The notes under the pieces are model-generated. The model made no database searches, was not told the origin of the DNA, and saw nothing but the letters and a program-made list of their open reading frames with translations. Shown here in pieces: positions 4,231 through 57,702 of a stretch of DNA of 64,000 nt. Position numbers and translations under genes: made by a program. The stretch is from an uncultured Gammaproteobacteria bacterium (lineage in GTDB: Bacteria; Patescibacteriota; Microgenomatia; Levybacterales; UBA12049): positions 916,668-980,667 of the forward strand of contig OZ246394.1 in the NCBI GenBank assembly GCA_965230895.1, in the 5' to 3' direction. Numbering within the stretch: position 1 is the stretch's first letter; every line of letters begins with the position of its first letter.

Positions 4231-4370
4231 TCTGTTGCTTATCATACCTGAAAACTCGTCACTTGACAAGCTGATTCTCCTTACCATATACTTACACTAA
4301 CTTATGCAAACGTATCAATCTTGCCGCCACAATTTTATGATTAAGAATCTCTATGTCCTCTGGACTAACG

Positions 4371-4450
4371 GGAGATTGGTGACGTGAGAAATACAAGAAA
4401 AGTATAAAACAACAAAGAACCAATCTCCTCAAAAAGGAGATTTTTTTTTG
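4371..4450 (+). promoter_or_regulatory. Attenuator-like RNA switch in a divergent intergenic region: a 10-bp long-range pairing that competes with a terminator-like hairpin plus U9
   Basis: ggagattggt (4371-4380) is the exact reverse complement of accaatctcc (4419-4428). The latter overlaps the hairpin aatctcc-tcaaaaa-ggagatt, which is followed by ttttttttt (4441-4449), 17 nt before the ATG at 4467. Confidence 0.3.
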
Positions 4451-4466
4451 GAAAGAAGACAAAAAT

Positions 4467-7576: not shown

Positions 7577-7593
7577 GGTATAATTTTAACAGC

Positions 7594-8997
7594 ATGAAGC
7601 AAGTTGTGCCAGAAGAAATTAAAAAAATATATGAACAATTTCGCGGTGCTGGTTTTCGCTTATATCTCGTCGGTGGATCGGTCCGCAATATACTGATCTA
7701 CAAAGAAAATGCCCTTCAAAATATCAAAGATTGGGATATGACAACTGATGCAACACCTGAACAAATGCTCGAGCTATTTCCCAATGCCTTTTATGATAAT
7801 GCATTTGGAACGGTAGGTATTCCAGTTAAAAGCTTGCTTGAGACAGAACATCCTGGCGTAGTAGAAATTACGACCTTCCGTACTGAACGCGGTTATTCAG
7901 ACAGAAGACATCCAAGTGAAGTCACATGGGGAAAAACAATTGAAGAAGATCTTGCACGCCGTGATTTTACAATGAATGCAATCGCTATGGAATTTAGTGG
8001 TGATACAGCAGAGATTGATACGGAACAATTAATTGATTTATATAACGGAGCAGAAGACATCCAAGCAAAAATCATTAGGACTGTTGGCGATCCAATGGAG
8101 CGATTTAAGGAAGATGCGTTGCGTCTCATGAGAGCTATCCGTTTTGCATCTCAACTCGGATTCCAAATTGAAGCGACAACATTAAAAGCAATAACTGAGG
8201 ATGCTCCGCTACTTGCAAGTATTGCACGAGAAAGAGTTCGAGATGAGCTGATGAAAGTTCTTGCAAGTGAATATCCTTACGAAGGAATTATGCTCTTAAG
8301 AAATACTGGACTGTTAGAACAAATTCTTCCAGAACTTCTTGAAGGCATTGGAGTCTCACAAGCGCGCCCAGGAAGACACCACAAAGACGATGTCTTTACA
8401 CATAATGTTCTTTCACTAAAACATTGTAGCTCAACCGATCCAATTGTTCGATTTGCAACTTTGATCCATGATATTGGCAAACCCCGTGTCGCTTCCGCTG
8501 ATGAAGATGGTTTTGTCATCTTTCACAATCATGAGATTGTTGGAGCAAAAATCGCTTATGAAATTTGCGATAGATTACGCTTTTCCAAAAAGAATAAAGA
8601 GAAAGTTGTAAAACTTATACGGTGGCATATGTTTACCGTTGACGAACATATAACCGATAGCGCGATCAGAAGATTTATCAGAAGAATTGGCAATGAAAAT
8701 GTCAAAGATATGATGGATTTGCGCGTGGGAGATAGACTCGGTGGAGGGACACAAACAGCTGAAAGTTGGAGATTAAAATTATTCAAAAAACGAGTTGAAG
8801 AGCAATTGGCTCCTGCTCCTTTCTCTATAAATGATATGGCTATTGACGGGAATGACATTATGAAAGAACTAGACATTAAACCAGGAAGACATATCGGAGA
8901 ACTTTTGCAAAAACTATTTGAAGAGGTTGATGAAGATTTGAATAATAACACTCGTGAATATTTACTCAAGCGGGTAAAGGAAATATATCAAAAATAA
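7594..8997 (+). CDS. cca: CCA-adding tRNA nucleotidyltransferase with HD domain
   Basis: Pol-beta NTase head LYLVGGSVRN...DWDMTT, and an HD motif LIHDIGKP in the C-terminal half. The track ORF begins at TTG 7567; ATG 7594 is preferred because it avoids overlapping the recJ start. Confidence 0.8.
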   Translation: MKQVVPEEIKKIYEQFRGAGFRLYLVGGSVRNILIYKENALQNIKDWDMTTDATPEQMLELFPNAFYDNAFGTVGIPVKSLLETEHPGVVEITTFRTERGYSDRRHPSEVTWGKTIEEDLARRDFTMNAIAMEFSGDTAEIDTEQLIDLYNGAEDIQAKIIRTVGDPMERFKEDALRLMRAIRFASQLGFQIEATTLKAITEDAPLLASIARERVRDELMKVLASEYPYEGIMLLRNTGLLEQILPELLEGIGVSQARPGRHHKDDVFTHNVLSLKHCSSTDPIVRFATLIHDIGKPRVASADEDGFVIFHNHEIVGAKIAYEICDRLRFSKKNKEKVVKLIRWHMFTVDEHITDSAIRRFIRRIGNENVKDMMDLRVGDRLGGGTQTAESWRLKLFKKRVEEQLAPAPFSINDMAIDGNDIMKELDIKPGRHIGELLQKLFEEVDEDLNNNTREYLLKRVKEIYQK

Positions 8998-9432
8998 TTA
9001 TTTCTTTTTAGGAGTCACCTTCTGTACTGAAGTACAAAATGCACAGCGTTTTGCTTCCAATGGAATTTCACTCAAACACTCTGTACATTTCTTTGAAGTC
9101 GGATCTAAAGGTTTTTTATTTTTTTGCATATTTGTCATAAGCTTGTTCATCGGTGTAACGACGAAGAAATAGATAACTGCTGCGTTAATGAAGAAAGCGA
9201 TAAGGACATTTACGAAATCGCCAACTAAAAATTTTGAATTATTAATAGTAAAACTTATCTGCGAAAAATCTGGTTGTCCACCAATTGCGGCAATAAAAGG
9301 AGTAATTAAATCTTTAACGAGAGCGTTAACAACTGCACTGAAAGAAGCACCGATAATGATACCGACTGCCAAATCAACAGCATTTCCTTTAACAATAAAC
9401 TGTTTAAAACCCTGAAGTGTTTCTTTAATCAT
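8998..9432 (-). CDS. mscL: Large-conductance mechanosensitive channel MscL with an atypical C-terminal CxxC...CxxC zinc-ribbon tail
   Basis: N-terminus KEFIVKGNAVDLAVGIIIGASF and TM2 are typical of MscL. The C-terminus KKCTECLSEIPLEAKRCAFCTS carries four Cys. Confidence 0.8.
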   Translation of the reverse strand: MIKETLQGFKQFIVKGNAVDLAVGIIIGASFSAVVNALVKDLITPFIAAIGGQPDFSQISFTINNSKFLVGDFVNVLIAFFINAAVIYFFVVTPMNKLMTNMQKNKKPLDPTSKKCTECLSEIPLEAKRCAFCTSVQKVTPKKK

Positions 9433-9475
9433 TAATTTGTATTATATGAAATCTTACTCATCTGTCAATAGTGTG

Positions 9476-9510
9476 CTTGCATTTGCGAACAATACTATTA
9501 TAATAGTAAT
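9476..9510 (+). promoter_or_regulatory. Candidate sigma70-like promoter (TTGCAT-16nt-TATAAT) upstream of the ABC transporter gene
   Basis: ttgcat ttgcgaacaatactat tataat, read directly in the divergent intergenic region. It sits inside a 9-10 bp long-range inverted repeat (aatcttactc / gagtaagatt). Confidence 0.3.
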
Positions 9511-9628
9511 GCAGAGTAAGATTTGCCCGCTTTGCAAAAGTTTTGAATACAATTTTTATGATGACCCTGCAAACATATTAACCTCTTGTATTTCCAACTC
9601 GCAAACTGGCATCCTATCTTAATTTTCT

Positions 9629-11389
9629 ATGTTAAAACATATACCAAAAGAACCAATTGCATATGGGATCTATCTCACAAAGATGCATAAACGATGGGCC
9701 TTCGTGGCTTTACTTTGTGTGTTTATTGCCACGGCGTTTGATAGATCATCTGTTATTTTTCTCAAAAACTTAACTGATTCAATTACTTTAGGACCAGGAG
9801 CCTTAGACCAGATATGGGTGTGGGCCATTGGCTATCCACTTGTATTGTTGAGTGCACATATCTTTTGGAGGGGTAGTGGTTTTTCCGGAATGCGGTGGTT
9901 CATGAATTTTAGAGCTTCATCATATGAGTCTCTTTATAACTATCTTTCGCTTCACAGTAAAGATTTTTTCAGTAGTAGATTTGCTGGAGCATTGACGAAC
10001 AAAATCAATAATGCGACTGACGGTTCTGAAAGTATTTTCGAAAAAGCGCTATGGCAATTCATCCCTTTAGTAATTGGACTTGTTTGGTATGTAGTTTTTG
10101 CATGGACGCAGAATTATATTCTAGGAGTTATTATTGGCTGTTGGTCAGTACTTTTTATTGGAATAAATATATGGTTCGCAAAAAAGCTCCAACCACGATC
10201 GTATAAGTCTGCTGAGACCTTATCGAATTTGAAAGGGCGTATTGTTGATTCGCTTTCAAATATTTCTTTAGTACATGAATATGCCAATGTTACTGGAGAA
10301 AGAAATTACATACAAGGATATATTCACTCACATAAAAATGCTGGACTAAAACATTGGACGATGAGTGAATTGATACTTACTTTTAACGGAATCTTCATAA
10401 CTTTATTTGTACTTTTAATGACATGCACATCAGTATACTTATTTCAGAGTGGAGCGATCAGTATTGGGACAGTTGTGATGATCATCGCCATTGTTAGTAA
10501 TCTTTATGGGCAATTACTTTTTATTGGACAGGAACTTCGTGATGCAGCAACGTATTATGGAGAAGCAAAAGAAGGTTTATCAGAGATATTAAAAGACCAT
10601 GCAATTGTCGATGCACCTCATGCAAAAACAGTGGACATAAAAAAAGGAGCAATCACTATTGATGGCATAGATTTCCAATATGAAGAAAAGAAAATATTTA
10701 ACAACTTTTCTCTTAAAATTCCTGCCGGACAGAAAGTTGGACTTGTTGGAAGGAGTGGAGCTGGAAAAACAACGTTTGTATCATTATTGCTTCGCCATTT
10801 TGAGTTGAATGATGGAACTATAACAATTGATAATCATGATATATCGCAGATTACACTGAACAGTCTGAGAAACGCAATTGCATTTGTGCCACAAGATACA
10901 AGCCTTTTTCATCGTACTATTAAAGATAATATCCGATACAGCAATGAGAACGCTTCAGATGAAGCAGTCAGGAAAGCCGCAGAACAAAGTCAATCGAGTG
11001 AATTTATTGAAAGTTTGCCAAAAAGATATGACACGCTCGTTGGTGAGCGGGGTGTAAAACTTTCTGGAGGGCAACGACAAAGAATTGCTATTGCCCGAGC
11101 ATTCTTAAAAGATGCACCGATTGTTATTTTCGATGAGGCAACGAGTAGCCTAGATAGTCAAAGTGAGCATGCTATCCAAGAATCTATTGAAAACTTAATG
11201 GCAAATAGAACTGTTATCGCTATTGCACATAGACTTTCGACGTTGAAGAAAATGGATAGAATTGTCGTTATAGAGAATGGAAAGATTGTCGAAGATGGTG
11301 TACCTGATGAATTACTCAAGAAGAAAAAAGGAGTATTTAAAAATCTTTGGGACCATCAAATTAATGGATTTATCATGGACGAGCAATAA
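9629..11389 (+). CDS. ABC transporter, fused permease plus ATPase (MsbA/exporter type)
   Basis: Six-TM N-terminal domain. Walker A GRSGAGKTT, signature LSGGQRQR, Walker B IVIFDEATS, H-loop AHRL. Confidence 0.85.
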   Translation: MLKHIPKEPIAYGIYLTKMHKRWAFVALLCVFIATAFDRSSVIFLKNLTDSITLGPGALDQIWVWAIGYPLVLLSAHIFWRGSGFSGMRWFMNFRASSYESLYNYLSLHSKDFFSSRFAGALTNKINNATDGSESIFEKALWQFIPLVIGLVWYVVFAWTQNYILGVIIGCWSVLFIGINIWFAKKLQPRSYKSAETLSNLKGRIVDSLSNISLVHEYANVTGERNYIQGYIHSHKNAGLKHWTMSELILTFNGIFITLFVLLMTCTSVYLFQSGAISIGTVVMIIAIVSNLYGQLLFIGQELRDAATYYGEAKEGLSEILKDHAIVDAPHAKTVDIKKGAITIDGIDFQYEEKKIFNNFSLKIPAGQKVGLVGRSGAGKTTFVSLLLRHFELNDGTITIDNHDISQITLNSLRNAIAFVPQDTSLFHRTIKDNIRYSNENASDEAVRKAAEQSQSSEFIESLPKRYDTLVGERGVKLSGGQRQRIAIARAFLKDAPIVIFDEATSSLDSQSEHAIQESIENLMANRTVIAIAHRLSTLKKMDRIVVIENGKIVEDGVPDELLKKKKGVFKNLWDHQINGFIMDEQ

Positions 11390-39491: not shown

Positions 39492-40187
39492 TTATTCCTC
39501 TTTTTTAGCGTGAGCTTTTGTTTCACGCTTATCATCACGGGTTAAAATACCTTTTTCGAGAATCAATGTTCTTTTCTGCATACTGTTCACAATATCGGCA
39601 TTATGTGTTGCCATAATAATAGTTGTACCACTATCGTTGATATCCTGCAAAAGTTTTACGATTTCCCATGTTGTCGCATTATCTAAATTACCTGTCGGTT
39701 CGTCAGCAAGAAGAATTTCAGGATTGAAAGCTAGTGCTCTAGCGATTGCTGCTCGTTGTAATTCTCCTCCAGATAATTGGATTGGGAATTTATTTATGTG
39801 CTCCTGAATTCCCACACGTTCGATAATCTCTTCTACTCGCTTTTTTGCATCGTGTGTATCCATGTTCCCTACTTCGAGCGGAAACATAATATTTTCAAAA
39901 ATTGTCCTATCACGCAAAAGCTTTAAATCCTGAAATACCATTCCGATATTTTTTCGCAAATGATGCACTTTCTTATGAGGAAGTTTCACAAGATCCCAAT
40001 CCCCTATATGGATTGCACCACTTGTCGGGACAGTATCACGGATAAGCAAGCGGAACAAGGTAGTCTTCCCGGATCCAGACGGTCCAACTAAAAAGACAAA
40101 TTCTCCACGATCAATCGTGAAGGTAACATCAGCAAGAGCTGTATTTCCAGTCGGATATGCTTTGGTAACATTTTCTAGTCGTATCAT
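39492..40187 (-). CDS. ftsE: Cell-division ATP-binding protein FtsE
   Basis: MIRLENVTKAYPTGNTAL, Walker A GPSGSGKTT, LSGGELQR, Walker B LLADEPTGNLD. Confidence 0.85.
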   Translation of the reverse strand: MIRLENVTKAYPTGNTALADVTFTIDRGEFVFLVGPSGSGKTTLFRLLIRDTVPTSGAIHIGDWDLVKLPHKKVHHLRKNIGMVFQDLKLLRDRTIFENIMFPLEVGNMDTHDAKKRVEEIIERVGIQEHINKFPIQLSGGELQRAAIARALAFNPEILLADEPTGNLDNATTWEIVKLLQDINDSGTTIIMATHNADIVNSMQKRTLILEKGILTRDDKRETKAHAKKEE

Positions 40188-40269: not shown

Positions 40270-40821
40270 CTATTGTACCTCAACTCGTCCAACATCCATG
40301 AGCCAGCCAGCATGCTGTGCGGTTTGCGTAGCGCCCCATACTTTTACTTTTTGATCTACGAACTTTGAAAGATCAACTGTTGAAGAAGTCATATACACAT
40401 TTTGACTTTCACCACCTGGACGCTCTAAATGATATTGCCCTTCTCCTTCGATACCGCCTTCTTTGAGTGTTCCTTCAGCTGTATCTTTATATGCCGATGT
40501 GTCATCGGAGCCAAAAGTTTCACCTTTCGCTGGAGCATTCGGATTGAGCGCACTTGGTACAACACTCTTTTGTCCAGGCTTGGATGTAAAAGCTGCAACT
40601 CCATATCCTGTTCCAACACCAAGAGCAGCCATCACTAAAAGTACAACGAGAATTTGGATTGTTGATGGTGCTTTTTTTGTCTCCTTAAATGATTGCATCG
40701 TTGGTCCTGACTGTTTGCCATCAAATGCAGATTTTGAAGCAGTTGATCCATCTGTCTTTGAAGCAGATGAACTTGAAGCTGGGGCTGCTGTTGATGGTTT
40801 TGGTGTTTCTTTATTTTCCAT
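40270..40821 (-). CDS. Hypothetical single-TM protein with a low-complexity N-terminus and a 110-aa extracytoplasmic C-terminal domain
   Basis: 183 aa, TM IQILVVLLVMAALGVGTGYGVAAF. It is the first gene of the ftsEX-containing operon. Confidence 0.4.
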   Translation of the reverse strand: MENKETPKPSTAAPASSSSASKTDGSTASKSAFDGKQSGPTMQSFKETKKAPSTIQILVVLLVMAALGVGTGYGVAAFTSKPGQKSVVPSALNPNAPAKGETFGSDDTSAYKDTAEGTLKEGGIEGEGQYHLERPGGESQNVYMTSSTVDLSKFVDQKVKVWGATQTAQHAGWLMDVGRVEVQ

Positions 40822-40911
40822 ACGGATTTCTTACCTAGCCGTTATCCTTAGTAAAACATATTTACCATCATTTGGCAACACTCGCAGATACGCTGGTATA
40901 ATACAACAATC

Positions 40912-41745
40912 TTGAATAATACGCACAAAGTTAAAATCATGGGAATTCTCAATGTAACTCCCAACTCATTTTCCGATGGAGGTCTTTATACAAATGTTCA
41001 TGCAGCTTTAAAAAGAACAGAAGTAATGCTTTATGAAGGTGCAGATATTATTGATATCGGGGGCGAATCAACAAGGCCAGGCTCAGAAACAGTAACTGAA
41101 ACAGAAGAACTGAAACGAGTTCTTCCTGTAATTAAAGCTATAAGAAAAGCATTTCCAAAGTGCATCTTATCAATTGATACAAACAAAGCGATAGTCGCAA
41201 AGGCAGCAATTGATGAAGGGTGCACAATAGTAAATAGTCTTGGAGGATTTAGTTTTGATAAAGAAATGGCACATATTGTGGCTGACTCTGGTTCACAATG
41301 CATTATCTACCATATAAAAGGTATCCCAAAGACAATGCAGAAAGGGGCAATAGCATATACAAATATCATCCAAGAGATTACACAGTTCTTTAGAGAACAG
41401 ATCGGAATTGGTATAGACGCAGGAATGAAACACGAGCAATTTATCATTGATCCCGGCATCGGATTTGGAAAAACAGTCGAACAGAATCTAGCAATAATTA
41501 GACACCTTCATGCGTTTGCATCACTTGATTGCCCAATCGCAATTGGTGTTTCAAGGAAGAGCCATTTAGGAGCAGTATTGAAAGAGCAGCTCAAGCTTGA
41601 TACACTTCCAACCGTTGATGAACGACTCGAAGCATCTTTAGCAGAGACAGCGGTTGCTATAATTAGTGGGGCAACGATAGTTAGAACCCATGATGTCCTA
41701 CAGACAAAGAAGTTTATAAGTGTTTTAGAATCAATAATTTCATGA
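40912..41745 (+). CDS. folP: Dihydropteroate synthase
   Basis: GILNVTPNSFSDGG, IIDIGGESTRPG, and a pterin-binding TIM-barrel pattern. Confidence 0.85.
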   Translation: MNNTHKVKIMGILNVTPNSFSDGGLYTNVHAALKRTEVMLYEGADIIDIGGESTRPGSETVTETEELKRVLPVIKAIRKAFPKCILSIDTNKAIVAKAAIDEGCTIVNSLGGFSFDKEMAHIVADSGSQCIIYHIKGIPKTMQKGAIAYTNIIQEITQFFREQIGIGIDAGMKHEQFIIDPGIGFGKTVEQNLAIIRHLHAFASLDCPIAIGVSRKSHLGAVLKEQLKLDTLPTVDERLEASLAETAVAIISGATIVRTHDVLQTKKFISVLESIIS

Positions 41746-42488
41746 ATATCCAACCATATAAAACAAACAAAATAGTTGCAGGAAATGATCTATACCAAGT
41801 CCTTGATGCTTCCTTGCCGAAACTTACTGAGAAGTCTGTCGTTGCAGTTACTTCGAAAATCGTTGGTATATGCGAAGGACGATTAGTTAAAGCGGGGACA
41901 CTTGAAGACAAATTCAAGCTTGCTGAAACTGAAGCAGATTATTATTTACCTCCAGGAGAGAACCAATATGGCATTATGCTTTCTATCAACCATAACCTTT
42001 TAGTCGCATCCGCTGGCATCGATGCTTCAAATAGCGATGGATATTTCAGCCTTTGGCCAAAAGACCCACAAAAAAGTGTTAATCAGATCAGAGAATATCT
42101 AACAAAAAAACATCAACTCAAACATGTCGGGGTTATTCTAACAGACAGTAAGCTCAGTCCGCTTCGCTGGGGAGTCACAGGATATGCTATTACACACAGT
42201 GGGTTCAAGGCTTTAAACAGCTATATTGGGACAGAGGATTTATTTGGACGAGAAATGCATATGGAACAGACAAATGTCATTGATTCACTCGCTTCAGCAT
42301 CTGTCGTTGTTATGGGAGAGGGCTCCGAGCAAACTCCACTTGCTGTAATCACTGATGTCCCTTTCATAGAGTTTCAAGATAGAAATCCGACCGAGAAAGA
42401 ACTCGATGCACTCAAAATAAATATTAAGGATGACGTCTATGCTTCAATGCTTTCGGCAGTTCCATGGAGGTCGAAAAGAAGAAAGTGA
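41742..42488 (+). CDS. CofE-family gamma-glutamyl ligase (F420-0:gamma-glutamyl ligase fold); candidate alternative folylpolyglutamate synthase (FolC2-like)
   Basis: VVAVTSKIVGICEGR, SAGIDASN, GVILTDSKLSPLRWGVTGYAITHSG, DLFGREM and VMGEGSEQTPLAVI match CofE block-for-block. Its start overlaps the folP stop by 4 nt. Confidence 0.7.
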   Translation: MNIQPYKTNKIVAGNDLYQVLDASLPKLTEKSVVAVTSKIVGICEGRLVKAGTLEDKFKLAETEADYYLPPGENQYGIMLSINHNLLVASAGIDASNSDGYFSLWPKDPQKSVNQIREYLTKKHQLKHVGVILTDSKLSPLRWGVTGYAITHSGFKALNSYIGTEDLFGREMHMEQTNVIDSLASASVVVMGEGSEQTPLAVITDVPFIEFQDRNPTEKELDALKINIKDDVYASMLSAVPWRSKRRK

Positions 42489-42905
42489 TCAAACCCATTT
42501 AATTCCAAATAAGGACATTTGCTCATGAGGCTGATGGCGAGCAACAAAAACATCCCTTTCTATCTCAAAGCTTAAAGGGATTTGTTCTCCAGGTTTTACA
42601 CGAGCAGCCAAGATTCGCTGCCGAAGCTCAAATCCCAACGATTCATTTTTCATACTAATCGCATCGACTACACCTCGTACTTTGCCGTCTGACTCATTAT
42701 TTGCATAGGCTGCGAGCTCATCTGCAAGTGATTCAACATGTAGTTCCTGCTGCAAACGATCTTTAGCCTCAGTAATTTTTCCAGGCTTCCGAAGCGACAT
42801 CAATGCAGAAGCCATTTTAAAAACTGTGCTAACCTCAACATCAGCTTCCAAATGTCTCTCCGTTTCAGGTGCCCGGAAAGAAGATCGTGGACGTTTTTCA
42901 ACCAT
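42489..42905 (-). CDS. Hypothetical protein (138 aa)
   Basis: ORF downstream of prfB. ATG chosen at 42905; the track start at 42941 is a TTG. Confidence 0.35.
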   Translation of the reverse strand: MVEKRPRSSFRAPETERHLEADVEVSTVFKMASALMSLRKPGKITEAKDRLQQELHVESLADELAAYANNESDGKVRGVVDAISMKNESLGFELRQRILAARVKPGEQIPLSFEIERDVFVARHQPHEQMSLFGIKWV

Positions 42906-42943
42906 AGCAAGAAGTATACCACTTACTATAAGTCTTATCAAGG

Positions 42944-43951
42944 TTAAGAGAGGCTGCGGAGTTCTTCTTCGATAAATTGATCTAAATCTCCATCCAGTAC
43001 TGCATCGGTATTTCCTGTTTCGACATTGGTACGAAGATCTTTTACCATCCTATATGGATGCAAAACATATGATCGGATTTGATTTCCCCAACCCGGGGTT
43101 TTGTAACCCCCTTTTAAAGCAGCTTCTTCCTTTTTTCTCTTCTCTTCTTCGATGGCCCAAAGCTTAGCTTTGAGAAGTTTCATCGCAAATTCACGATTTG
43201 CACCTTGATATCGTTCGGTTTGTGCAGTGACGACTATGCCTGAAGGTTTGTGCTTTAATCGAACAGCAGTTGAAACTTTATTGACATTTTGCCCACCATG
43301 TCCGCCTGAACGAAAAGCATCAAATTCTATATCATCATCTTTGATTTCAATTCCTGAATCTTGTACCAACTCAGGCAATACTTCAACCATGGCGAACGAT
43401 GTTTGACGAAGCGCATCAGCATTAAATGGCGACAAGCGAACCAAACGATGGACACCAGCTTCATGCTTTAAATATCCATACGCATACTTCCCTTCAACAG
43501 AAAGTGTGATACTTTTGAGACCGGCTTCTTCACCAGGTGTTTGATCCAAAATATCATATGCCCAACCTCTTTTTTCGAAAAACTTTGTATACATACGGAA
43601 AAGTATGGAAACCCAATCCATCGCTTCTGTCCCACCCTGGCCGGAATGAATTGCAAAGATGGCATTGGATTTATCATTGGGAGAAGAGAAGAACATCAAC
43701 AGCTCCATTTTCTTCAAGAGCTTTTCGACTTCATCGGTTTCACCTTCCTCCATCCATAATTCAAGAAGTTCTACTTCTTCAACTTCTTTTTGCAGCGAAG
43801 ACATCTCTTTCATTTTTGCAGCCGCGGTTTGGTGATCATCCCAAAAACCAGGCTTCATACTTTCTGCCTCAAGCTCACGAATCCGTTTACGCTTTTCGTC
43901 TGCATCGATCTTCTCAATTAATTTGGTAACACGATTCTTTAAATCATCCAT
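42944..43951 (-). CDS. prfB: Peptide chain release factor 2 (contiguous, no programmed frameshift)
   Basis: SPF tripeptide LSPFNA, GGQ motif [12 protein letters not shown]. Start chosen at MDDLKNRV (43951). The reading frame is uninterrupted. Confidence 0.85.
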
Positions 43952-44031
43952 AATCTGTACATTATACATGAGAGTTTTATGGCTGAGTGGAACGAAGTGT
44001 AATCGAAACCTTCGACTACGCTCAGGCATTA

Positions 44032-49012: not shown

Positions 49013-50152
49013 TTAATAATTTTCTCCAGCATTCGTGATGAGGAGTGAATGAGGATGGGATTCGGTGAGACTTGCTTGGGTGATTTGGAGAAATTGTGCT
49101 TTCTTTTGAAGTTCTGGAATTGATTTTGCACCCACATAGTACAAACCTGATTTGATTCCACCGATTGCTTGGTCGAGGACAGACTGGACAGAACCTTTGA
49201 CTGGAACTAAGCCTTCAACACCTTCCGCAACTAAAACTCGATCTTTATAATCTTTGCCATGATATTCGTCCTCGGATTTGATCTTGGTTCCTTTTTTCAT
49301 CGCACCAATTGAACCCATACCGCGATATTCTTTGAACACATATGATGATTTATTTTTCTGAAAAATGCTTTGGAAACGATGCGGAACTTGTGCTTTCGTC
49401 AACGTCACTTTCTTTCCAGGAGATTCTTTCGTTGAGGCGAAGAAGCTTCCCATCATTACAGCTGCCGCACCAGTCGCAAACGCTTTAACCATGTCACCTG
49501 AATATTTAATACCACCATCAGCAATAACCGGGATCCTTTTCTTCGAAGCACTGCGTACGACCTCAGTAAGCGCAGTAATTTGAGGAACTCCCATTCCTGA
49601 GATAATACGAGTTGTACAAATTGCACCCGGTCCCATACCAACTCGGAGACAATCTGCACCAGCTGCAATCAAAGCTTCAGCGCCATCAAATGTTGCGATA
49701 TTTCCACCCATGATATCGATCTTTGGATATTTTCCCTTAATAAACTTGATGGCATCGATGATTTGCTTGGTAAATCCGTGAGCAGAATCAACAACAAGCA
49801 ATGAAACATCTGCTTTGATCAATGCTTCAACCCGTTCCTGATAATTCCCACTTGCTCCAACCGCAGCACCAACGAAAAGCTTTTTCTTACGAACTGCACT
49901 GACATGTTTTGCTTGATCGTTGATTGAGAGATTGCGGTGAATAATACCAATCCCACCCATTTCTGCTAAAGCAATTGCAAGTTCGGATTCGGTAACAGTA
50001 TCCATCGGAGCGGAGACAAAAGGAGCGGTCAGTGTAATATTCTTTGTTAACTTCGTAGATAAATCGATGTCGCCCCGAGAAAAATCTGCATACCCTGGGA
50101 CAAGAAGAACGTCGTCAAAGGTCAAACCGAGAGGAAGAGTTTGCTTAACCAT
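49013..50152 (-). CDS. IMP dehydrogenase/GMP reductase-family TIM-barrel enzyme lacking the CBS subdomain
   Basis: GIGIIHRN, catalytic-Cys loop [19 protein letters not shown], 379 aa. Confidence 0.8.
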
Positions 50153-50165
50153 AATTCAATTTATA

Positions 50166-50468
50166 TCATTTACGTCGCCATGTCAACGCTTTTCGCCAAC
50201 GCTTATAAAAAGGTTCTGCATGTTTTACCTTAATTTTAAAATCTTCTATTACCGGATTTGCTAAGAATCCATCGGAAAAGACAGTCACTTGGGCTCTCGC
50301 ATCTTTTTTTGAGGAGGCAGTAATTCTAAAATCATAGGCTTTACCTGCGCGCAGGTTAACAACTTCATGCCCTTTTCTCCCCAGCGCATCAGCAATTGCA
50401 TTGGCTTGAGGGTCTCTGATTTCAGATTTATAGTTTGTTTGGACGTGGACGAGAAACTCTCTCGACAT
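50166..50468 (-). CDS. purS: Phosphoribosylformylglycinamidine synthase subunit PurS-like, with a basic C-terminal extension
   Basis: IRDPQANAIADAL, LRAGKAYDF, FLANPVIEDF align with canonical PurS blocks (VLDPQG...AL / RIGKY / LLANPVIEDY). Confidence 0.6.
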   Translation of the reverse strand: MSREFLVHVQTNYKSEIRDPQANAIADALGRKGHEVVNLRAGKAYDFRITASSKKDARAQVTVFSDGFLANPVIEDFKIKVKHAEPFYKRWRKALTWRRK

Positions 50469-50674: not shown

Positions 50675-52510
50675 ATGATTAGATTAATTGGGGTGACCCA
50701 AAAAGACAAAAATATACTTCTCTATTACGCCTATACCAAGAATGGCAAAAATTTCTTCAAATGTGTAGCAAGTGATGATGGATTTGAATTTAACGGTGCT
50801 ACGAAATATGTCATAGTTACAGATGCAAAAGGCCGTGAAGAATCAAAATATGAATTTAAGAACTTTAATATAACACCTCAAGGTGAAAAGTTTGTGGTCG
50901 CATTCAAAGCAAATGAGAAAGCAAAAGATTTGACCTTTGCGATTTCTGACCAGCTACTCCGTTGGACAAAGGTTGCTAAGGAAGAATCCATTAAGGAAGC
51001 TGGTGCATTAGTTCCAGATTATAAGTACAAACATCGCCATGTACTGTACACCGGAGAGAAAAATATAAAGGTTGCTTACTCGTCTCAGCTTGAAAGCTGG
51101 AAGACTGTAGACAAGCCTGTCCTCGAAAGCCGAGCAGGCTTTTTTGATGATGGAGATCTGGAAATAGCGAAGGTATTTATGCACGCAGAACAGATCCTGG
51201 TAATTTACTATTCAAAGTCTAAGCAAGGCAATCATACAGTCCACAAAGTTGGAGCAGCGTACTTTGATCCAAAGAATCCAGAACATCTTCTTTGGAGATC
51301 AGACAAACCTCTTTGGGAACAACCTGTCCACAAACACGCAGATCCACTCCAACCACTTGATGTTGAAATGGCGAAAGAATACCTTATTCTTTATTGGTCA
51401 GTGAATGATTCAAATATCTATGCTGTGACTTGCCCACTTCCAGGTGGAAGCCTCCGGGATAAGGATGTCCAAATCCTTCTGAAGAAACCGCATCAAAATC
51501 CTATTTTAAAGCCTCGCCCTGATAGAGTTTGGGAATCACGTGCTGTATTTAATTCCGCTGCGCTTTATGAAGATGGCAAAGTCCATTTCCTTTATCGAGC
51601 ATTGGGAGATAGTGATCTCTCTGTTATTGGGTACGCTGCAAGTTCCGATGGATTGACAATTGATGAGCGATCAGAAGAACCAATTTATCTTCCACGTGAA
51701 CCATTTGAAACTCCTGGCGGACAAGCATTTAAATCCTTTGCAGATCATTTCGCATCAGGTGGTGGATATGGTGGCATTGAAGATCCTCGAGTTACAAAAG
51801 TTGATGATACAGTTTTTATGACATATGTCGCTTACGATGGGTGGACTCCGCCAAGAGCTGCTTTGACTTCAATACCACTCGAAGATTTCCTTGCAAAGAA
51901 TTGGGACAAATGGAAGAAACCAAAACTCATCTCACCTCCTGGTATGGTAAATAAAAGTGCAGTTATCTTTCCCGAAAAGATTAATGGGAAGTATGTAGTG
52001 ATTCATAGAGTCTATCCAAATATCTTGGTGGATGTTTTGGATGATTTAGACTTTGATGATAAATTCCTCACTGGACATCATTTTATTCCACCTCGAAAGG
52101 GACATTGGGATAGTAAAAAGATCGGAGCTGGCGCACCTCCAATGCTTACAAAAGATGGCTGGCTTCTGATCTATCAATCTGTTGGGTACCAGGATCCTGG
52201 ACGCTATAAGATTGGTGCGATGGTTCTCGATAAAGACGATCCAACGAAGGTACTCTATCGAACGAATAACCCGATCGTCTCTCCAGACATGCCGTATGAT
52301 AATGATGGATTTAAAGCTGGGGTAGTTTATCCTTGTGGTGCTGTCATCAAAGACGACAATCTCTTTGTATACTATGGAGGCGCAGATACAATTGTTGCAG
52401 CAGCTACAGCAAACGTGGACGACTTCCTCGATAAGATGAAAAACCATAAAGAACCAAAGATGAGAAAAGTCAAAGCGCCTGTGATACACTCACATCATGC
52501 GCATGCATAA
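50675..52510 (+). CDS. Two-domain GH130-family glycoside phosphorylase-like protein (degenerate N-terminal repeat plus canonical C-terminal GH130 domain)
   Basis: C-terminal half shows GGIEDPRVTKVDD, GAGAPPMLTKDGWLLIYQ, YKIGAMVLDKDDP, YYGGADT. The N-terminal half retains the GAAYFDPKNPEHLLWR-type blade. Confidence 0.7.
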   Translation: MIRLIGVTQKDKNILLYYAYTKNGKNFFKCVASDDGFEFNGATKYVIVTDAKGREESKYEFKNFNITPQGEKFVVAFKANEKAKDLTFAISDQLLRWTKVAKEESIKEAGALVPDYKYKHRHVLYTGEKNIKVAYSSQLESWKTVDKPVLESRAGFFDDGDLEIAKVFMHAEQILVIYYSKSKQGNHTVHKVGAAYFDPKNPEHLLWRSDKPLWEQPVHKHADPLQPLDVEMAKEYLILYWSVNDSNIYAVTCPLPGGSLRDKDVQILLKKPHQNPILKPRPDRVWESRAVFNSAALYEDGKVHFLYRALGDSDLSVIGYAASSDGLTIDERSEEPIYLPREPFETPGGQAFKSFADHFASGGGYGGIEDPRVTKVDDTVFMTYVAYDGWTPPRAALTSIPLEDFLAKNWDKWKKPKLISPPGMVNKSAVIFPEKINGKYVVIHRVYPNILVDVLDDLDFDDKFLTGHHFIPPRKGHWDSKKIGAGAPPMLTKDGWLLIYQSVGYQDPGRYKIGAMVLDKDDPTKVLYRTNNPIVSPDMPYDNDGFKAGVVYPCGAVIKDDNLFVYYGGADTIVAAATANVDDFLDKMKNHKEPKMRKVKAPVIHSHHAHA

Positions 52511-52537
52511 ATGTAGGAAATCAGGTACACTATTATC

Positions 52538-54490
52538 ATGATAAAGCTACAACGTTCTACTAATAATCCTATCCTCAGTCCTGATCCAAATAATCCTTGG
52601 GAACATGATGGAGCGTTCAATGGATGTGTTGTTTTCCATGATGGCGTCTACCATATGGTATATCGTGCTCTTTCTTCAGAAAAAAGACAGAATGGTATCA
52701 GCATGCGTGTCTCCACTGTTGGGTATGCCACAAGCACAGATGGTGTGACCTTTGGTGAGCATCGGCTCCTTTTTGAGCCAACAGAAGATTGGGAAATTTA
52801 CGGTGTTGAAGATCCAAGAATTACCTTCCATAATGGCAAATTCTATATTTTCTATACAGCACTTTCTGTCTATCCATTTGCTGCATATGGTATTAAAACT
52901 GCGGTTGCGATAACGACTGACTTTAAAACTTTTGAAAAGCATCCAGTCAGCACATTCAATGCAAAGGCTCAGGCGCTTTTTCCTGAAAAGATTAATGGCA
53001 AATTCGCTTCTCTGATAACCATTAATACAGATATGCCACCAGCAAAGATTTGTGTAGCAACATTTGATCATGAATCAGATATTTGGTCACCGTATTATTG
53101 GACAGAATGGTATGACAACGTAAACCAACACGCACTTCATTTACTCAGAGATTTACAGGACCAGATAGAACTTGGTGCACCACCTGTCAAAACTCCAGAC
53201 GGATGGTTTGTCATTTATTCATATATTGGGAATTATCTTTCAAATAATAAGAACTTCGGAATTGAAGCGGTTCTTCTAGACCTCGATGATCCAAGAAAAG
53301 TTATTGCAAGAACTGAACATTCACTACTTGATCCTGAAGCAGAATATGAGTTGCATGGAGATGTCCCAAATATCGTTTTTCCTTCAGGCGCTTTAGTAAA
53401 AGATGATGAGCTATTTGTCTATTATGGTGCTGCTGATACTCGAGTCGGTCTCGCATCTGCAAAACTTTCAGACATCATTGCAGAGATGAAACCAGCAGAT
53501 TCAGCAAAGAACCTATCGTTGTATGCAGAAGAAAAGCACGCGAATGCTTCCAAGACGAAATTTCAAAGATATGAAGGAAATCCGATTATTGTTCCTGCAC
53601 TAGAATCTGATTGGCAGGCATTTGGAACATTTAATCCGGCTGTCGTCTATGAAGATAATAAATTCCATATTGTCTATCGTGCTCAAGCAGTTAATGGAAC
53701 TTCTGTCATGGGGTATGCAATGAGTAAAGATGGCTTTACTATCGATGAAAATTTAGAAGAGCCGATTTACTTTCCCCGTGAAGCATTTGAGCAAAAAATT
53801 CATGAGACCGGGAATTCAGGCTGCGAAGACCCTCGAGTAACTAAAATTGATGATCGCTATTATATGCTCTACACAGCTTATGATGGTGTTCATCCACCAA
53901 GAGTTGCGATGTCTTCGATTGCTGTGGATGACTTTTTAAAAAAGCAATGGAATTGGTCACCTGCACAACTTATTTCACCACCGGAGGTCGACGATAAAGA
54001 TGCATGTATCGTCAAGGGCAAAGCAGCAGGAACGTATTTGGCGTTCCACCGATTAGGTTATGATATATGGCTGGATATTAGAAAGGATCTTGTTTTTAAT
54101 GAATCTGATTGGCTCAAAGGAGAAGTCATTGCGCATCCTCGAGCTGATCATTGGGATAATGTAAAACTTGGTATCAGCGCTCCACCAATCGAAACAGAGA
54201 AAGGCTGGCTCCTTCTTTATCATGGCGTGTCAGAACCAGGAAACGTTTATAAAGTTGGTGCTATGCTTTTAGATTTCGACGATCCTAGAAAAGTTCTAGC
54301 AAGGACCGATGATCCTGTATTTGAGCCGGAAACAGAATACGAGAAAGTTGGGGTTGTACCAAATGTCGTTTTCCCTTGCGGAGCTGTGAATGTAAATGGA
54401 ACTATATTTATGTATTATGGGGGCGCTGATAAAGTAATTGGTGTTGCGACAATGAAACTTGATGATCTAATGAAACTTCTTAAATATTAA
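52538..54490 (+). CDS. Tandem double GH130 glycoside phosphorylase (two complete GH130 domains)
   Basis: Domain 1: NPILSPDP...VEDPRITFHNGKFYIFYTA...GAPPVKTPDGW...YYGAADT. Domain 2: NPIIVPAL...CEDPRVTKIDDRYYMLYTA...ISAPPIETEKGWLLLYHG...YYGGADK. Confidence 0.8.
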   Translation: MIKLQRSTNNPILSPDPNNPWEHDGAFNGCVVFHDGVYHMVYRALSSEKRQNGISMRVSTVGYATSTDGVTFGEHRLLFEPTEDWEIYGVEDPRITFHNGKFYIFYTALSVYPFAAYGIKTAVAITTDFKTFEKHPVSTFNAKAQALFPEKINGKFASLITINTDMPPAKICVATFDHESDIWSPYYWTEWYDNVNQHALHLLRDLQDQIELGAPPVKTPDGWFVIYSYIGNYLSNNKNFGIEAVLLDLDDPRKVIARTEHSLLDPEAEYELHGDVPNIVFPSGALVKDDELFVYYGAADTRVGLASAKLSDIIAEMKPADSAKNLSLYAEEKHANASKTKFQRYEGNPIIVPALESDWQAFGTFNPAVVYEDNKFHIVYRAQAVNGTSVMGYAMSKDGFTIDENLEEPIYFPREAFEQKIHETGNSGCEDPRVTKIDDRYYMLYTAYDGVHPPRVAMSSIAVDDFLKKQWNWSPAQLISPPEVDDKDACIVKGKAAGTYLAFHRLGYDIWLDIRKDLVFNESDWLKGEVIAHPRADHWDNVKLGISAPPIETEKGWLLLYHGVSEPGNVYKVGAMLLDFDDPRKVLARTDDPVFEPETEYEKVGVVPNVVFPCGAVNVNGTIFMYYGGADKVIGVATMKLDDLMKLLKY

Positions 54491-56154
54491 CCTCCGTAGT
54501 GTTCATATGAGTTATTAATAACAGGTAAATACGCCTTTTCGAAATAATCCCGAAGCATCCTTGTTGCGCTAAATTGGTTAAGGATCAAATCTCTCCCATC
54601 CCGTTGCATTGTTTGCCACTTTGATTTATCTTGATCGTAATAAGCAGGAACGACTTGTCTTTCCAATGTATCCAAAAGACTTGTTTGGATTGTTTCGCTA
54701 TCGAAAGACCAACCAATTTTATTGATATCTATTTCATCCATCCATCCGTCTTTCGTACTCAATGGTAAAACGCCATTAAGACTCGCTTTCATACCACTTG
54801 TCCCACACGCTTCCGAACCAACGACTGGAGTATTAAGCCAAACATCAGCACCACTAATCATCAATTTCGCTAACGTCTTATTATAATCAGCAAGATAGAC
54901 GACATTGCCTGCCAAACGATTCTGTAGTAATTGCTGCAATTGATTTATTAAATCACGTCCTTCATCATCAGCTTGATGAGAGATACCTGCCATAACAACC
55001 CGGACAGGCCGATCAGCATTTGTTGCCAAAGCGACAAATCGTTCGAGATCACTGAACAACGCCAACGGCCGTTTGTAACGGACCATCCTTCTCGCCCACC
55101 CAAGGAGCAACTCATTCTCTCCCCATTGCTGCCCAGTTTCTTTAGCAATATATGATAATAGTGCTTTTTTACTGGTATCATGATATGCCATGCTTTCCCA
55201 ACTTGGCGTATGGATACCATTCGTTACTGGCTCCCAAACAAAATCCGGCCATAGCTTATTTGCTTCTTTCACATGTAATTTACTCACACCATTGATCTTT
55301 CCAGCCAATCGCATCGCAAAAACTGCAAGATAAAAATCATGCGAATCTTTAATCGTTCCTAAATCGGAAATCTTTGTCACAGGAATTTCAAGTTGGCTTG
55401 CATACTTACTGAGCATCATATGGAGTAATTCATTACTGAAGATATCATTTCCCGCTGGAACCAAAGTATGATTGGTGAAGACAACATGATGTGAAGCTAA
55501 TTTTGATGCTTCGTCAAATGATATTTTTCTTTTCTGTATCTCATGACGGATAATTTCAAGAACAAGAAGCGCTGAATGCCCTTCATTCATGTGATAAAGG
55601 GACGGTTGTACGCCAAGCAATTCGAGCAATCGAAACCCTCCAATACCCAGAATGATTTCTTGTTTCAGACGAACCTGCTTATCTGAATCATAGAGTTTAA
55701 ACCCAATTGCTCGATCCTCAGGAGAATTTTCAGGGACATTCGTATCGAGAAGATATAATGGAATTGAATGATGCTGCCATATCCAACTTTTTACTAACAC
55801 TTCATGGTCCCCTACTGGAACAGAGATAATTAAAGGCTTTTGATTTTTATCCAAAACTGGCTTCAAACCTTGATTCTCAGGAGTTGGCAGGATGTGCTCA
55901 TTGTCCTTGTCATGATGCGGATCAAATCCATATCGACTCTGATAGTAAAGACCAACCGAAACAGCCGGGATATGACGATCTGCCAATTCTTTTATAAAAT
56001 CACCTGCAAGGATACCAAGCCCACCTGCATAGGTTGGAATCTTATCTGAGAGTGCGTATTCAATACTAAAATAGGCTAATGGTTTTTTCTGAAGAAGCTG
56101 ATAAGGTTTGGTCTTACGAAAATCCTCGAACCAAGCTGCATGTTCATTTGCCAT
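54487..56154 (-). CDS. glgP: Alpha-glucan (glycogen/maltodextrin) phosphorylase, short GT35 form
   Basis: PLP-lysine region EACGTSGMKA, 555 aa, N-terminal AYFSIEYAL...GGLGILAGD. Confidence 0.8.
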   Translation of the reverse strand: MANEHAAWFEDFRKTKPYQLLQKKPLAYFSIEYALSDKIPTYAGGLGILAGDFIKELADRHIPAVSVGLYYQSRYGFDPHHDKDNEHILPTPENQGLKPVLDKNQKPLIISVPVGDHEVLVKSWIWQHHSIPLYLLDTNVPENSPEDRAIGFKLYDSDKQVRLKQEIILGIGGFRLLELLGVQPSLYHMNEGHSALLVLEIIRHEIQKRKISFDEASKLASHHVVFTNHTLVPAGNDIFSNELLHMMLSKYASQLEIPVTKISDLGTIKDSHDFYLAVFAMRLAGKINGVSKLHVKEANKLWPDFVWEPVTNGIHTPSWESMAYHDTSKKALLSYIAKETGQQWGENELLLGWARRMVRYKRPLALFSDLERFVALATNADRPVRVVMAGISHQADDEGRDLINQLQQLLQNRLAGNVVYLADYNKTLAKLMISGADVWLNTPVVGSEACGTSGMKASLNGVLPLSTKDGWMDEIDINKIGWSFDSETIQTSLLDTLERQVVPAYYDQDKSKWQTMQRDGRDLILNQFSATRMLRDYFEKAYLPVINNSYEHYGG

Positions 56155-56163
56155 TCCTCTATT

Positions 56164-57702
56164 TTAAGCTAATTGTCTCGGAGATGCTACTGTTGCGGTA
56201 ATTTCTTTTCTTTTTGCGGCGACCCTTTTATACCAACTATCATACTGTGTGGCAGCATGACTCCATGAGAAGTCGCTTTCAAGACAATTCTTCACAAGCA
56301 ATTTCCATAGTTTTGGATGATTATAAATAATAAGCGCCTGCATGATCGTACCGTACAATGACCACGCATCTTTATTTTTGAACGAGAAGCCATTTCCTTC
56401 TTTCGTTGCTGGATTATAATCGGTAATGATATCACTTAATCCACCAGTTCTTCTGATGAGAGGGACACATCCGTATCGCAATGCTTCAAGAGCAATAATA
56501 CCACCCGGTTCAAAAAGACTTGGAATTAGCATCATATCTGCTCCAGCAAAGATCTTTTTAGGCAGGCGGAAATCAGGACGCAAATGAAGTCCAACTTGCT
56601 CAGGAAATGTCTTCTGCAGCACGGTCAGCTCAAGTCGATAGCGTTCTTCGCCACTTCCAAGAAATACGATTTGGACATCAGGACGCTCGCTCAATAAATG
56701 AGGTAATGCTTCCAGAACAATATCTAATCCTTTCTGCTTAACCATTCTTCCACTAAGAGCTAATAATGGCCGGTGAACATCTGGTGTAAGCCCAAAAAGC
56801 TTTTGGAGTTCTCTTTTATTCTCTTCTCTAGCATGTACAAAAGAATTTGTATTGAAATTCTTTTTGATAAACTTATCTGTATGGGGATTAAATTTTTCTG
56901 TGTCCAAACCATTAAGAATACCGGTAACTCTATCTTTGACTGATTGCAGCACTTCATCCAATCCTTCTGCATATTCAGGAGTCATTACTTCAACTGCATG
57001 CGTTGGACTAACAGTATTGATAGCATCAGCAAAAAGCAAACCTCGTTTCAATGGATTCTGTAATTGTAAAGATGGCGCTGTCAAAGGAGCTGGCAAAATC
57101 TCTCCACTATCAAATTCTTCTTTCGGACAATAGCGAAAGTCATAGTTTCCTTGTAACGAAAAATTATGCACCGTAAATACTATTGGAGTCTTGCGAAAAA
57201 GCTCTTTGTAGCGTGGGTGTCTACGCGCTAAATCAATAAAATACCCAGTATGCCAATCATGTGCATGTATAACATCTGGTTTCCACTCATTATGATTAGT
57301 TTGATTTTGTAACATCCACTCAAGACAGGCTTTAGAAAGTAATGCAAAGCGTGTGTGATCGTCTTTGTATCCATAGACATTTGCGCGAAGTTCATAGTAT
57401 TCTCTATTCTCTAAGAAATATGCTTGAATTTTTGAGCCCTTATCCCGATAGGATTTTACATTACAGATAATCGATTTATTTTCCTGATCGTTGTCATCAG
57501 GAACGATTAAATCAGGATACTCCATTTGTAATTTCCAGTTTCCTTCAATTGTGGTTTCATCCATTGCCCCATATTTAGGAGTAAAAATACGGACATCATG
57601 CCCGAGCTTACGGAGTTCTTTTGGGAGAAAATACATGAACTGACTCAAACCACCAACTGAAACAAATGGAGCAACTTCAGCAGCAAGAAAGAGAATATTC
57701 AT
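56164..57702 (-). CDS. glgA: Glycogen (starch) synthase, GT5
   Basis: MNILFLAAEVAPFVSVGGLSQF (K-x-GGL motif region) and a GT-B C-terminal domain. Confidence 0.85.
   Translation of the reverse strand: MNILFLAAEVAPFVSVGGLSQFMYFLPKELRKLGHDVRIFTPKYGAMDETTIEGNWKLQMEYPDLIVPDDNDQENKSIICNVKSYRDKGSKIQAYFLENREYYELRANVYGYKDDHTRFALLSKACLEWMLQNQTNHNEWKPDVIHAHDWHTGYFIDLARRHPRYKELFRKTPIVFTVHNFSLQGNYDFRYCPKEEFDSGEILPAPLTAPSLQLQNPLKRGLLFADAINTVSPTHAVEVMTPEYAEGLDEVLQSVKDRVTGILNGLDTEKFNPHTDKFIKKNFNTNSFVHAREENKRELQKLFGLTPDVHRPLLALSGRMVKQKGLDIVLEALPHLLSERPDVQIVFLGSGEERYRLELTVLQKTFPEQVGLHLRPDFRLPKKIFAGADMMLIPSLFEPGGIIALEALRYGCVPLIRRTGGLSDIITDYNPATKEGNGFSFKNKDAWSLYGTIMQALIIYNHPKLWKLLVKNCLESDFSWSHAATQYDSWYKRVAAKRKEITATVASPRQLA

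Follow-up and report, generated by a model that had tools for sequence, protein, structure and literature searches.

The window analysed here is a stretch of 64 kb from a genome of roughly 1.6 Mb (contig OZ246394.1, positions 916,668 to 980,667 of the forward strand), and the subject of this analysis is a pair of genes within it that encode a dihydropteroate synthase (DHPS, FolP) and a gamma-glutamyl ligase with the fold of CofE, the coenzyme F420-0:L-glutamate ligase. The features of the locus are compiled in Table 1. The pair was interpreted as folP followed by the gene of a folate ligase of the FolC2 subfamily, together the remnant of an eroded folate operon, and this interpretation as a whole is regarded as likely. 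The two genes would form an operon of a Levybacteria-like bacterium (Microgenomates, Candidate Phyla Radiation (CPR)).

Table 1. Features of the folP-folC2 locus, in coordinates of the window.
Feature	Position	Strand	Remarks
folP, dihydropteroate synthase	40939..41745	+	268 aa from ATG; longest open reading frame (ORF) from TTG 40912, 277 aa
FolC2-type (CofE-fold) gamma-glutamyl ligase, putative dihydrofolate synthase/folylpolyglutamate synthase	41742..42488	+	ATG start, 248 aa
ATGA overlap of folP stop and folC2 start, also the deletion junction	41742..41745	+	from the sequence
Possible promoter, TTGGCA-19 nt-TATAAT	40872..40902	+	weak consensus match only; ends 36 nt 5' of ATG 40939
ftsE, left synteny anchor	39492-40187	-	ABC_tran match; outside the operon, divergent from folP
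Conserved hypothetical membrane-anchored protein (183 aa), left synteny anchor	40270-40821	-	outside the operon, divergent from folP
150-aa ORF, function unassigned, right synteny anchor	42489-42941	-	convergent with folC2; no Pfam or NCBIfam match
prfB, right synteny anchor	42944-44029	-	PCRF and RF-1 domains; convergent with folC2

The two reading frames have four nucleotides in common, in which the TGA of folP and the ATG of the ligase gene overlap (...AATAATTTC-ATGA-ATATCCAACC...), and this overlap had been correctly described in an earlier, sequence-only reading of the locus. The ORF from 40912 to 41745 that had been assigned to folP in that reading is present, but the gene most likely starts at ATG 40939. 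Translation from this codon (MGILNVTP...) agrees with the start in the relatives and with the gene calls on identical Logan contigs, and if the candidate promoter were used, TTG 40912 would be an unlikely start codon for folP. The candidate promoter matched once in the window, and at least one match was also obtained in 17 of 100 shuffled sequences; it had been skipped by the standard promoter scan because of its spacer of 19 nt. That scan, performed for promoters and terminators between 40200 and 43000, gave fewer matches than the shuffled sequences and none that was usable, and scans of the window for tRNAs and Rfam families gave no matches. About 60 ORFs spanning the 64 kb were compared with Pfam, and no cof or fbi gene, no other folate gene and no Mur-ligase-type FolC was detected, which bears out the earlier statement that other F420 genes are absent from the window. 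No remnants were found in the window by tblastn with FolB, FolE, PabA, PabB, PabC, FolK and three canonical FolC queries.

The family identity of the ligase was assessed by comparison with protein family models. The protein matched PF01996 (F420_ligase) with 127.2 bits (cutoff 25, E = 8.3e-37), and its best NCBIfam model was TIGR04132, named "putative folate metabolism gamma-glutamate ligase" (intra_fol_E_lig), which gave 263.7 bits and aligned end to end (residues 1-243 with positions 1-240 of 241 of the model). The CofE model TIGR01916 gave 119.6 bits, below its cutoff of 180.65 and less than half of the TIGR04132 score. FolC2-like proteins of related loci, those encoded in full folate operons among them, scored like the window ligase (259-272 bits with TIGR04132 and 96-127 bits with TIGR01916), whereas the opposite pattern was obtained for a CofE-like control, a distant homolog of 30% identity in locus L043, which scored 112 bits with TIGR04132 and passed the TIGR01916 cutoff with 188.4 bits. 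This pattern supports a placement of the ligase in the folate-type FolC2 branch and not with the F420 enzyme CofE. The gene of the control protein (9995-10759, + strand of L043) follows directly on genes for amidohydrolase, urocanase and histidine ammonia-lyase of hut type (upstream, 5780-9987), and such neighbours are unusual for the gene of an F420 ligase.

Homologs of the ligase are numerous, with 3115 proteins at E<=1e-5 and 248 clusters (50% identity) at E<=1e-30. With 80% identity, the closest relative that bears a name belongs to the metagenome-assembled genome (MAG) GCA_013816255.1 of a 'Candidatus Levybacteria bacterium' (Patescibacteria group, Microgenomates group). Many close homologs are named 'putative folate metabolism gamma-glutamate ligase' or 'DHFS/FPGS' (dihydrofolate synthase/folylpolyglutamate synthase) by JGI, and equally close homologs are named 'coenzyme F420-0:L-glutamate ligase' by NCBI; this naming conflict is seen in the homologs P0006, P0023, P0066 and P0081. 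The NCBI name would wrongly imply F420 metabolism in Patescibacteria. In addition, the NCBI taxon labels of some homologs (Methylomirabilota, Sulfotelmatobacter) stand on contigs with the gene order of Microgenomates, which suggests binning errors. The claim of the sequence-only reading that the locus is another instance of FolC2 therefore stands as far as the type of enzyme is concerned, but it is less novel than had been supposed, as the family has its own NCBIfam model and folate-related names from JGI already exist: the ligase adds a member to a family that was known and modelled before. Literature searches of the available library retrieved no paper linking COG1478, FolC2 or gamma-glutamyl ligase with CPR or Patescibacteria.

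The AlphaFold model of the ligase (predicted local distance difference test score 92) had a single fold match in the PDB, namely CofE of Archaeoglobus fulgidus (PDB 2G9I, 2PHN, 7ULD), with a template modelling score of 0.77 and 26% identity over the whole length (Foldseek). The CofE kinship had been derived in the sequence-only reading from the motifs SAGIDASN, GVILTDS...GYAITHSG, DLFGREM and VMGEGS, all four of which are present in the translation. The motifs of the catalytic half, GIDASN, TDS (within (I/L)TD(T/S)) and MGEG, are common to both enzymes, so that the GTP- and Mn-dependent amide-ligase chemistry of the A. fulgidus enzyme is probably also that of the window ligase. By phmmer, only residues 86-204 could be aligned with A. 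fulgidus CofE (72 bits). In the latter, the deazaflavin is held by F92, G153-C155 and R234, with G153-C155 lying against the F420 chromophore (PMC10861534). In the sequence alignment, as distinct from a docked structure, G153-R154-C155 correspond to L138-S139-P140 of the ligase, with P140 invariant and L138 almost so throughout the family, and the regions of F92 and R234 gave no phmmer alignment to the ligase. The fold and the chemistry are therefore CofE-like and the substrate-holding parts are not.

These results bear on the explanation that the gene is a genuine cofE, whose product makes the oligoglutamate tail of coenzyme F420. The PF01996 domain, the CofE fold and the NCBI names of the homologs are in its favour; the sub-cutoff TIGR01916 score, the partial alignment, the different chromophore-contact segment, the lack of cof and fbi genes in the 64 kb and the consistently folate-related neighbours in the relatives are against it. 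F420 biosynthesis genes were detected neither in the window nor near the folC2-like genes of the approximately 35 related loci that were examined. With model scores, substrate segment and gene context all pointing away from F420, this explanation is highly improbable and was effectively excluded.

The closest experimental precedent is CT611 of Chlamydia trachomatis; a chlamydial FolC2 had been mentioned with some reservation in the sequence-only reading and, as the literature confirms, correctly. This COG1478 member of the chlamydial folate cluster was predicted to replace the missing FolC, was found to complement SF4, a folC mutant of E. coli, and was named FolC2 (De Crecy-Lagard et al. 2007, PMC1971073). 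The cluster folB-folKP-folA-folC2-ct610 is conserved and co-transcribed in Chlamydia (Adams et al. 2014, PMC4161248), and the gene of 5-formyltetrahydrofolate cyclo-ligase (5-FCL) is among those drawn in folC2 clusters according to the legend of Figure 5A of the 2007 paper (PMC1971073). Like the window ligase, CT611 (COG1478, TIGR04132) is a single-domain protein of the CofE family of about 240-250 aa that is encoded in a folate cluster, and neither organism is expected to make F420. The hosts differ, Chlamydia being an obligate intracellular pathogen and the window host a free-living or episymbiotic CPR bacterium, and so do the operons, which read folB-folKP-folA-folC2-ct610 in Chlamydia, folP-folB-folE-pabCB-folK-folC2 in the CPR relatives and folP-folC2 in the window. 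The termini of CT611, as derived from the primers in the 2007 paper (MEITPIKT... and ...WSQEKK), resemble those of the window ligase (MNIQPYKT... and ...PWRSKRRK) in an N-terminal M-x-I-x-P-x-K-T and a C-terminal W...K-K, and the N-terminal motif recurs throughout the family; the C-terminal tail DDVYASML...W is conserved as well. None of the 150 best cluster representatives, which were screened for termini like those of CT611, was chlamydial, and their sole match was the N-terminal motif common to the family. A search of genome contigs with a 19-nt piece of the CT611 forward primer yielded two matches (Planctomycetales and Methanofilum), both of which were dismissed as chance.

On the basis of homology, gene context and the CT611 complementation, the window ligase most likely glutamylates dihydropteroate and/or folates. 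It would add L-glutamate to folate-type substrates, not to F420, by nucleotide- and metal-dependent chemistry of the CofE type, converting dihydropteroate to dihydrofolate and/or tetrahydrofolate to its polyglutamates. The same reaction, glutamylation of dihydropteroate and folates, is carried out by the canonical bifunctional FolC (TIGR01499; E. coli FolC). The two enzymes also have in common the slot of the last gene of folate operons, but the canonical FolC is an ATP-dependent Mur ligase that is unrelated to the CofE-fold FolC2 in fold and ancestry.

Strong evidence for a folate function, and the main new result, was obtained from the gene neighbourhoods of the related loci. One conserved flank was found to consist of tsaE, a gene for an LTD-domain protein (in some loci an ORF without annotation), a PcsB-like gene, ftsX, ftsE and a hypothetical gene, and the other of prfB; in every relative examined the pair of ftsE and the hypothetical gene lies ahead of folP or folC2, and prfB lies 3' of folC2. 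Between these flanks, the gene order folP-folB-folE-pabC-pabB(-pabA)-folK-folC2 was present in eight distinct loci (L007, L009, L012, L013, which is a Roizmanbacteria MAG, L020, L021, L024 and L031), all viewed with 10-kb context, to which three partial contigs can be added. Their FolC2 proteins are 59-67% identical to that of the window, and no canonical folC was detected within +/-10 kb in any of the eight. These loci represent a complete operon for de novo folate synthesis with a CofE homolog in the position of FolC. PabC, PabB and FolK are fused in several of them, as in the 880-aa triple fusion PabC-PabB-FolK of L013 (7362-10004, +) and the PabB-FolK fusion of L009 (8021-9949). The link of the ligase to folate genes that had been proposed from the window alone is thus strong across the relatives.

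Seven loci of reduced gene content were distinguished from these full operons. Only folP and folC2 are left in the window, L005, L046 and L048, and only folC2 is left in L011, L049 and L050, so that folC2 has been kept in 7/7. In a neighbour-joining tree of concatenated FolC2, PrfB and FtsE sequences (300 bootstraps), the seven formed one clade (100%), with L012 and L020, both of which have the full operon, as its sister group (100%). Within the clade, the window grouped with L005 and L046 (100%), L048, which has folP, with L049, which has not (97%), and L011 with L050, both without folP (100%). The most parsimonious account assumes a single deletion from folB to folK and, after it, two or more independent losses of folP. 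Accordingly, the ancestral operon folP-folB-folE-pabC-pabB(-pabA)-folK-folC2 was located between the ftsE-hypothetical gene pair and prfB, a single block deletion in the window clade placed folC2 against the stop codon of folP, and folP was then lost as well in sister lineages, at least twice.

The sequence of the junction is consistent with this history. In the full operons the stop codon of folP overlaps the start of folB as ATGA, and at the same position the window runs directly into the coding sequence of folC2. The junction is homologous in the window, L005, L046 and L048, with small indels and overlaps of 4, 20, 1 and 11 nt, respectively. In L017, which belongs to another FolC2 clade, folP adjoins folC2 with a different junction, and this adjacency is an independent event. 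The shared junction and the comparison with the full operons indicate that the coupling of the two genes is a deletion scar and not an evolved pairing of DHPS and ligase. The physical tie to DHPS that had been pointed out in the sequence-only reading thus goes back to the removal of folB, folE, pabC/B/A and folK, and the sister lineages dispensed with folP later while keeping folC2. The 150-aa ORF downstream of folC2 and its counterparts were also considered as a remnant of folC, which occupies that site in L027 and L034, and were rejected (best blastp E = 0.15).

The state of FolP was analysed next to that of the ligase. FolP matched PF00809 (Pterin_bind) with 258 bits (9.7e-77) and passed the cutoff of the DHPS model TIGR01496 (291.7 bits, cutoff 162.6), and it aligned over the full length with the E. 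coli DHPS 1AJ0 (about 184 bits). The motifs GILNVTP(N)SFSDGG, DIGGESTRPG, SIDT, DPGIGFGK, SRKS and RTHD are present, and of the 95 columns that are invariant in the eight full-operon FolP proteins, 83 are unchanged in all four FolP proteins of the folP-folC2 clade. The altered columns lie outside the DHPS motifs of universal conservation, with one exception that is confined to the window, a replacement of D by N at 40963-40965 (codon 9 from ATG 40939) in the TPDSF motif, corresponding to D26 of E. coli; aspartate is found at this position in all relatives and in E. coli.

Selection was measured as the ratio of non-synonymous to synonymous differences per site (pN/pS), because the dN/dS ratio based on dS was mostly unusable at saturated synonymous sites. 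The pS values were 0.6-0.8, and this saturation indicates that the folP-folC2 lineages are old. For FolP, pN/pS was 0.24-0.35 in the four folP-folC2 lineages and 0.23-0.32 in pairs of full-operon genomes; the corresponding ranges for the reduced clade and the full-operon pairs were 0.13-0.19 and 0.17-0.24 for FolC2 and 0.07-0.12 and 0.08-0.12 for PrfB. Relaxed selection on the orphan FolP was considered, as the protein-distance ratios to PrfB and FtsE looked raised between the window and L005, but is not supported, since pN/pS across all pairs was not above that of the full-operon genomes. Judged from these comparisons, FolP looks functional, selected and catalytically intact.

The search for the preceding steps of the pathway was extended to the genome contigs. 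The window contains no folK, and none of the best 120 FolK homologs (down to approximately 51% identity) lay on the 1,610,123-bp contig that carries the exact FolC2 of the window or on the 1,318,932-bp contig that carries its 83% relative; the same result was obtained with the best 120 FolE homologs (down to approximately 62% identity). This negative result is weak, as a relocated copy of vertical descent would be caught in this way and a divergent or non-orthologous one would not. The contig of the FolC2 relative P0003 was inspected as well and has no folE; its apparent link to the FolE hit P0502 was coincidental.

Two explanations differ in how the orphan FolP is accounted for. According to the first, FolC2 acts solely as folylpolyglutamate synthase (FPGS) on imported folate, and FolP lacks a substrate and is on its way out. 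The loss of folB, folE, pabABC and folK from the locus, the lack of close FolK and FolE homologs on both contigs among the best 120 hits, the repeated loss of folP next to the constant retention of folC2 and the aspartate replacement in an otherwise invariant motif of the window FolP all agree with it, as does locus L023. In L023, a Vut_1 vitamin-transporter gene (4282-4941, +; YhhQ family, 'queuosine precursor transporter'; TIGR00697 124.5 bits, above the cutoff) overlaps the start of the folC2-like gene (4938) at the site of folP...folK in the relatives, and the transporter is a candidate importer of folate or pterin paired with the glutamyl ligase. Against this explanation, folP is intact in four lineages with saturated synonymous sites, with conserved catalytic motifs and pN/pS values like those of full-operon FolP, and a neutral relic should show stop codons or frameshifts over that distance. 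Taken strictly, with FolP as a mere relic, the explanation is possible but rather doubtful.

The second explanation is that DHPS and FolC2 constitute a selected two-step module for late folate synthesis without a pterin branch of its own, fed by pterin (di)phosphate from host cells or by a hydroxymethyldihydropterin kinase that is non-orthologous, such as one of archaeal type. It was raised because folP is intact in four diverged lineages, under purifying selection as strong as that on FolP in the full operons, and because none of the best 120 FolK or FolE homologs lay on the genome contigs. We consider it unlikely; if true, it would represent a pterin-level route of folate salvage that has not been described for bacteria.

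Returning to the interpretation of the pair as an operon remnant, comparison with known salvage-dependent bacteria is informative with respect to the ligase. Such bacteria keep FPGS (PMC1971073), and in genomes that retain only FolC and dihydrofolate reductase (Lactobacillus, Mycoplasma and others; de Crecy-Lagard et al. 2007) the pterin and para-aminobenzoate (pABA) branches have been lost and the glutamylating enzyme has been kept. This pattern matches the loci L011, L049 and L050 with folC2 only and the transporter-folC2 pair of L023. As folC2 is the sole gene never lost, in line with the rule for salvage-dependent bacteria, its role in the reduced clade would be the glutamylation of salvaged folate, and the ligase most plausibly serves to retain and activate such folate in the absence of the pterin and pABA branches. 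The window differs in that folP has been kept without folK, which is not a standard pathway variant; de novo synthesis is normally recognised by the joint presence of folK and folP (de Crecy-Lagard et al. 2007).

Further neighbourhoods of folC2-like genes contain folate genes of other kinds. The neighbours are genes for serine hydroxymethyltransferase and an MTHFR-domain protein in L028 and for 5-FCL in L037. In four or five loci a canonical FolC is encoded next to the FolC2-like protein. It is located between folC2 and prfB in L027 (1951-3282, -; TIGR01499 254.8 bits, cutoff 162.65), which also has pabB-folK-folC2, and in L034 (941-2272, -; 240.3 bits). In L036 it lies just upstream of the FolC2-like gene (8141-9580, +; 341.8 bits), preceded by MurD and a MurL-like epimerase, and it has the same position in L035 (about 163-1490, +), where it was detected by tblastn only. 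The folC2-like gene of L034 (1-940) is broken and consists of an N-terminal fragment, a GC-rich insert of approximately 120 nt and a second copy with an internal stop codon and a missing segment, which is either a pseudogene or a misassembly. All informative neighbourhoods being related to folate, a folate function is strongly supported.

Several points weigh against the interpretation of the ligase as a folate-glutamylating FolC2. The trusted cutoff of TIGR04132 is 350 bits, so that membership by the rule of NCBI fails for the window ligase as for all CPR FolC2-like proteins tested. CT611 is the sole member of the family that has been tested, by complementation, the CPR members being known from sequence alone, and the comparison with CT611 covers the primer-encoded termini. 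FolC and FolC2 are not strict alternatives, as they occur side by side in L027, L034, L035 and L036, and the FolC2-like enzyme could perform only one of the two activities of FolC or another reaction. That the ligase takes the place of a canonical folC, as the sequence-only reading had it, is thus no safe assumption for the genome of roughly 1.6 Mb, of which the 64 kb of the window contain no such gene. Finally, a DHPS kept under selection without hydroxymethyldihydropterin pyrophosphokinase (FolK) makes no sense as a pathway unless the kinase is encoded elsewhere in the genome.

Most of these points are shared by a further explanation, in which the ligase uses another substrate (another pterin, pABA or a peptide) or carries out one half-reaction of FolC next to a canonical FolC encoded elsewhere in the genome. 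The intact canonical FolC beside the FolC2-like genes of L027, L035 and L036 fits it, and so does the score below the trusted cutoff of TIGR04132, a model centred on Chlamydia; the single tested member, known by complementation only, also leaves room for it. On the other side stand the folate genes in every informative neighbourhood and the eight full operons without a folC nearby. The disruption of the folC2-like gene in L034, where a canonical folC is present, fits redundancy better, with the reservation that the contig is possibly misassembled. Overall, this explanation was judged improbable.

The folate-operon remnant thus remains the preferred interpretation, and the basic classification of the ligase is unchanged by this analysis: the context evidence supports the folate reading already given by JGI and TIGR04132. 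New here are the context of operon erosion, the conflict between NCBI and JGI annotations, the orphan DHPS and the co-occurrence of FolC and FolC2. The series runs from the full operon through folP-folC2 to folC2 alone (or transporter-folC2), all at a single conserved site of the chromosome, and it illustrates the stepwise loss of vitamin synthesis in ultrasmall bacteria with retention of the glutamylation step for salvaged folate. The lineages with FolC and FolC2 side by side offer a natural experiment on redundancy versus a division of the dihydrofolate synthase and FPGS roles.

Gene loss at this locus seems to extend beyond folate. The window contains an orphan purS (50166-50468, -; Pfam PurS, 71.9 bits) that adjoins the gene for IMP dehydrogenase (49013-50152), and at the syntenic site downstream of prfB a large purine operon is present in L007, L009, L012 and L013, comprising a purF-purN fusion, purD(-purL) fusions of up to 1409 aa, purQ, archaeal-type PurP and purH. 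Genes of de novo purine synthesis thus seem to have disappeared from the locus in the window clade, in addition to the folate genes.

Two other gene groups of the window were recorded. Tandem GH130 proteins (mannoside phosphorylase family) of 611 and 650 aa, followed by glycogen-phosphorylase-like and starch-synthase-like genes, are encoded at 50675-54490 (+) and 54487-57702 (-), in an arrangement that is conserved in L005 and L011. The segment 57773-63981 encodes a CarS-like protein of the CDP-archaeol synthase family, a PHP-domain protein, two CDP-alcohol phosphatidyltransferases and myo-inositol-1-phosphate synthase as well as a LysR regulator, an SPFH protein and a nucleotidyltransferase, and looks like a cluster of inositol-phospholipid type with an enzyme of an archaeal family in a CPR bacterium.

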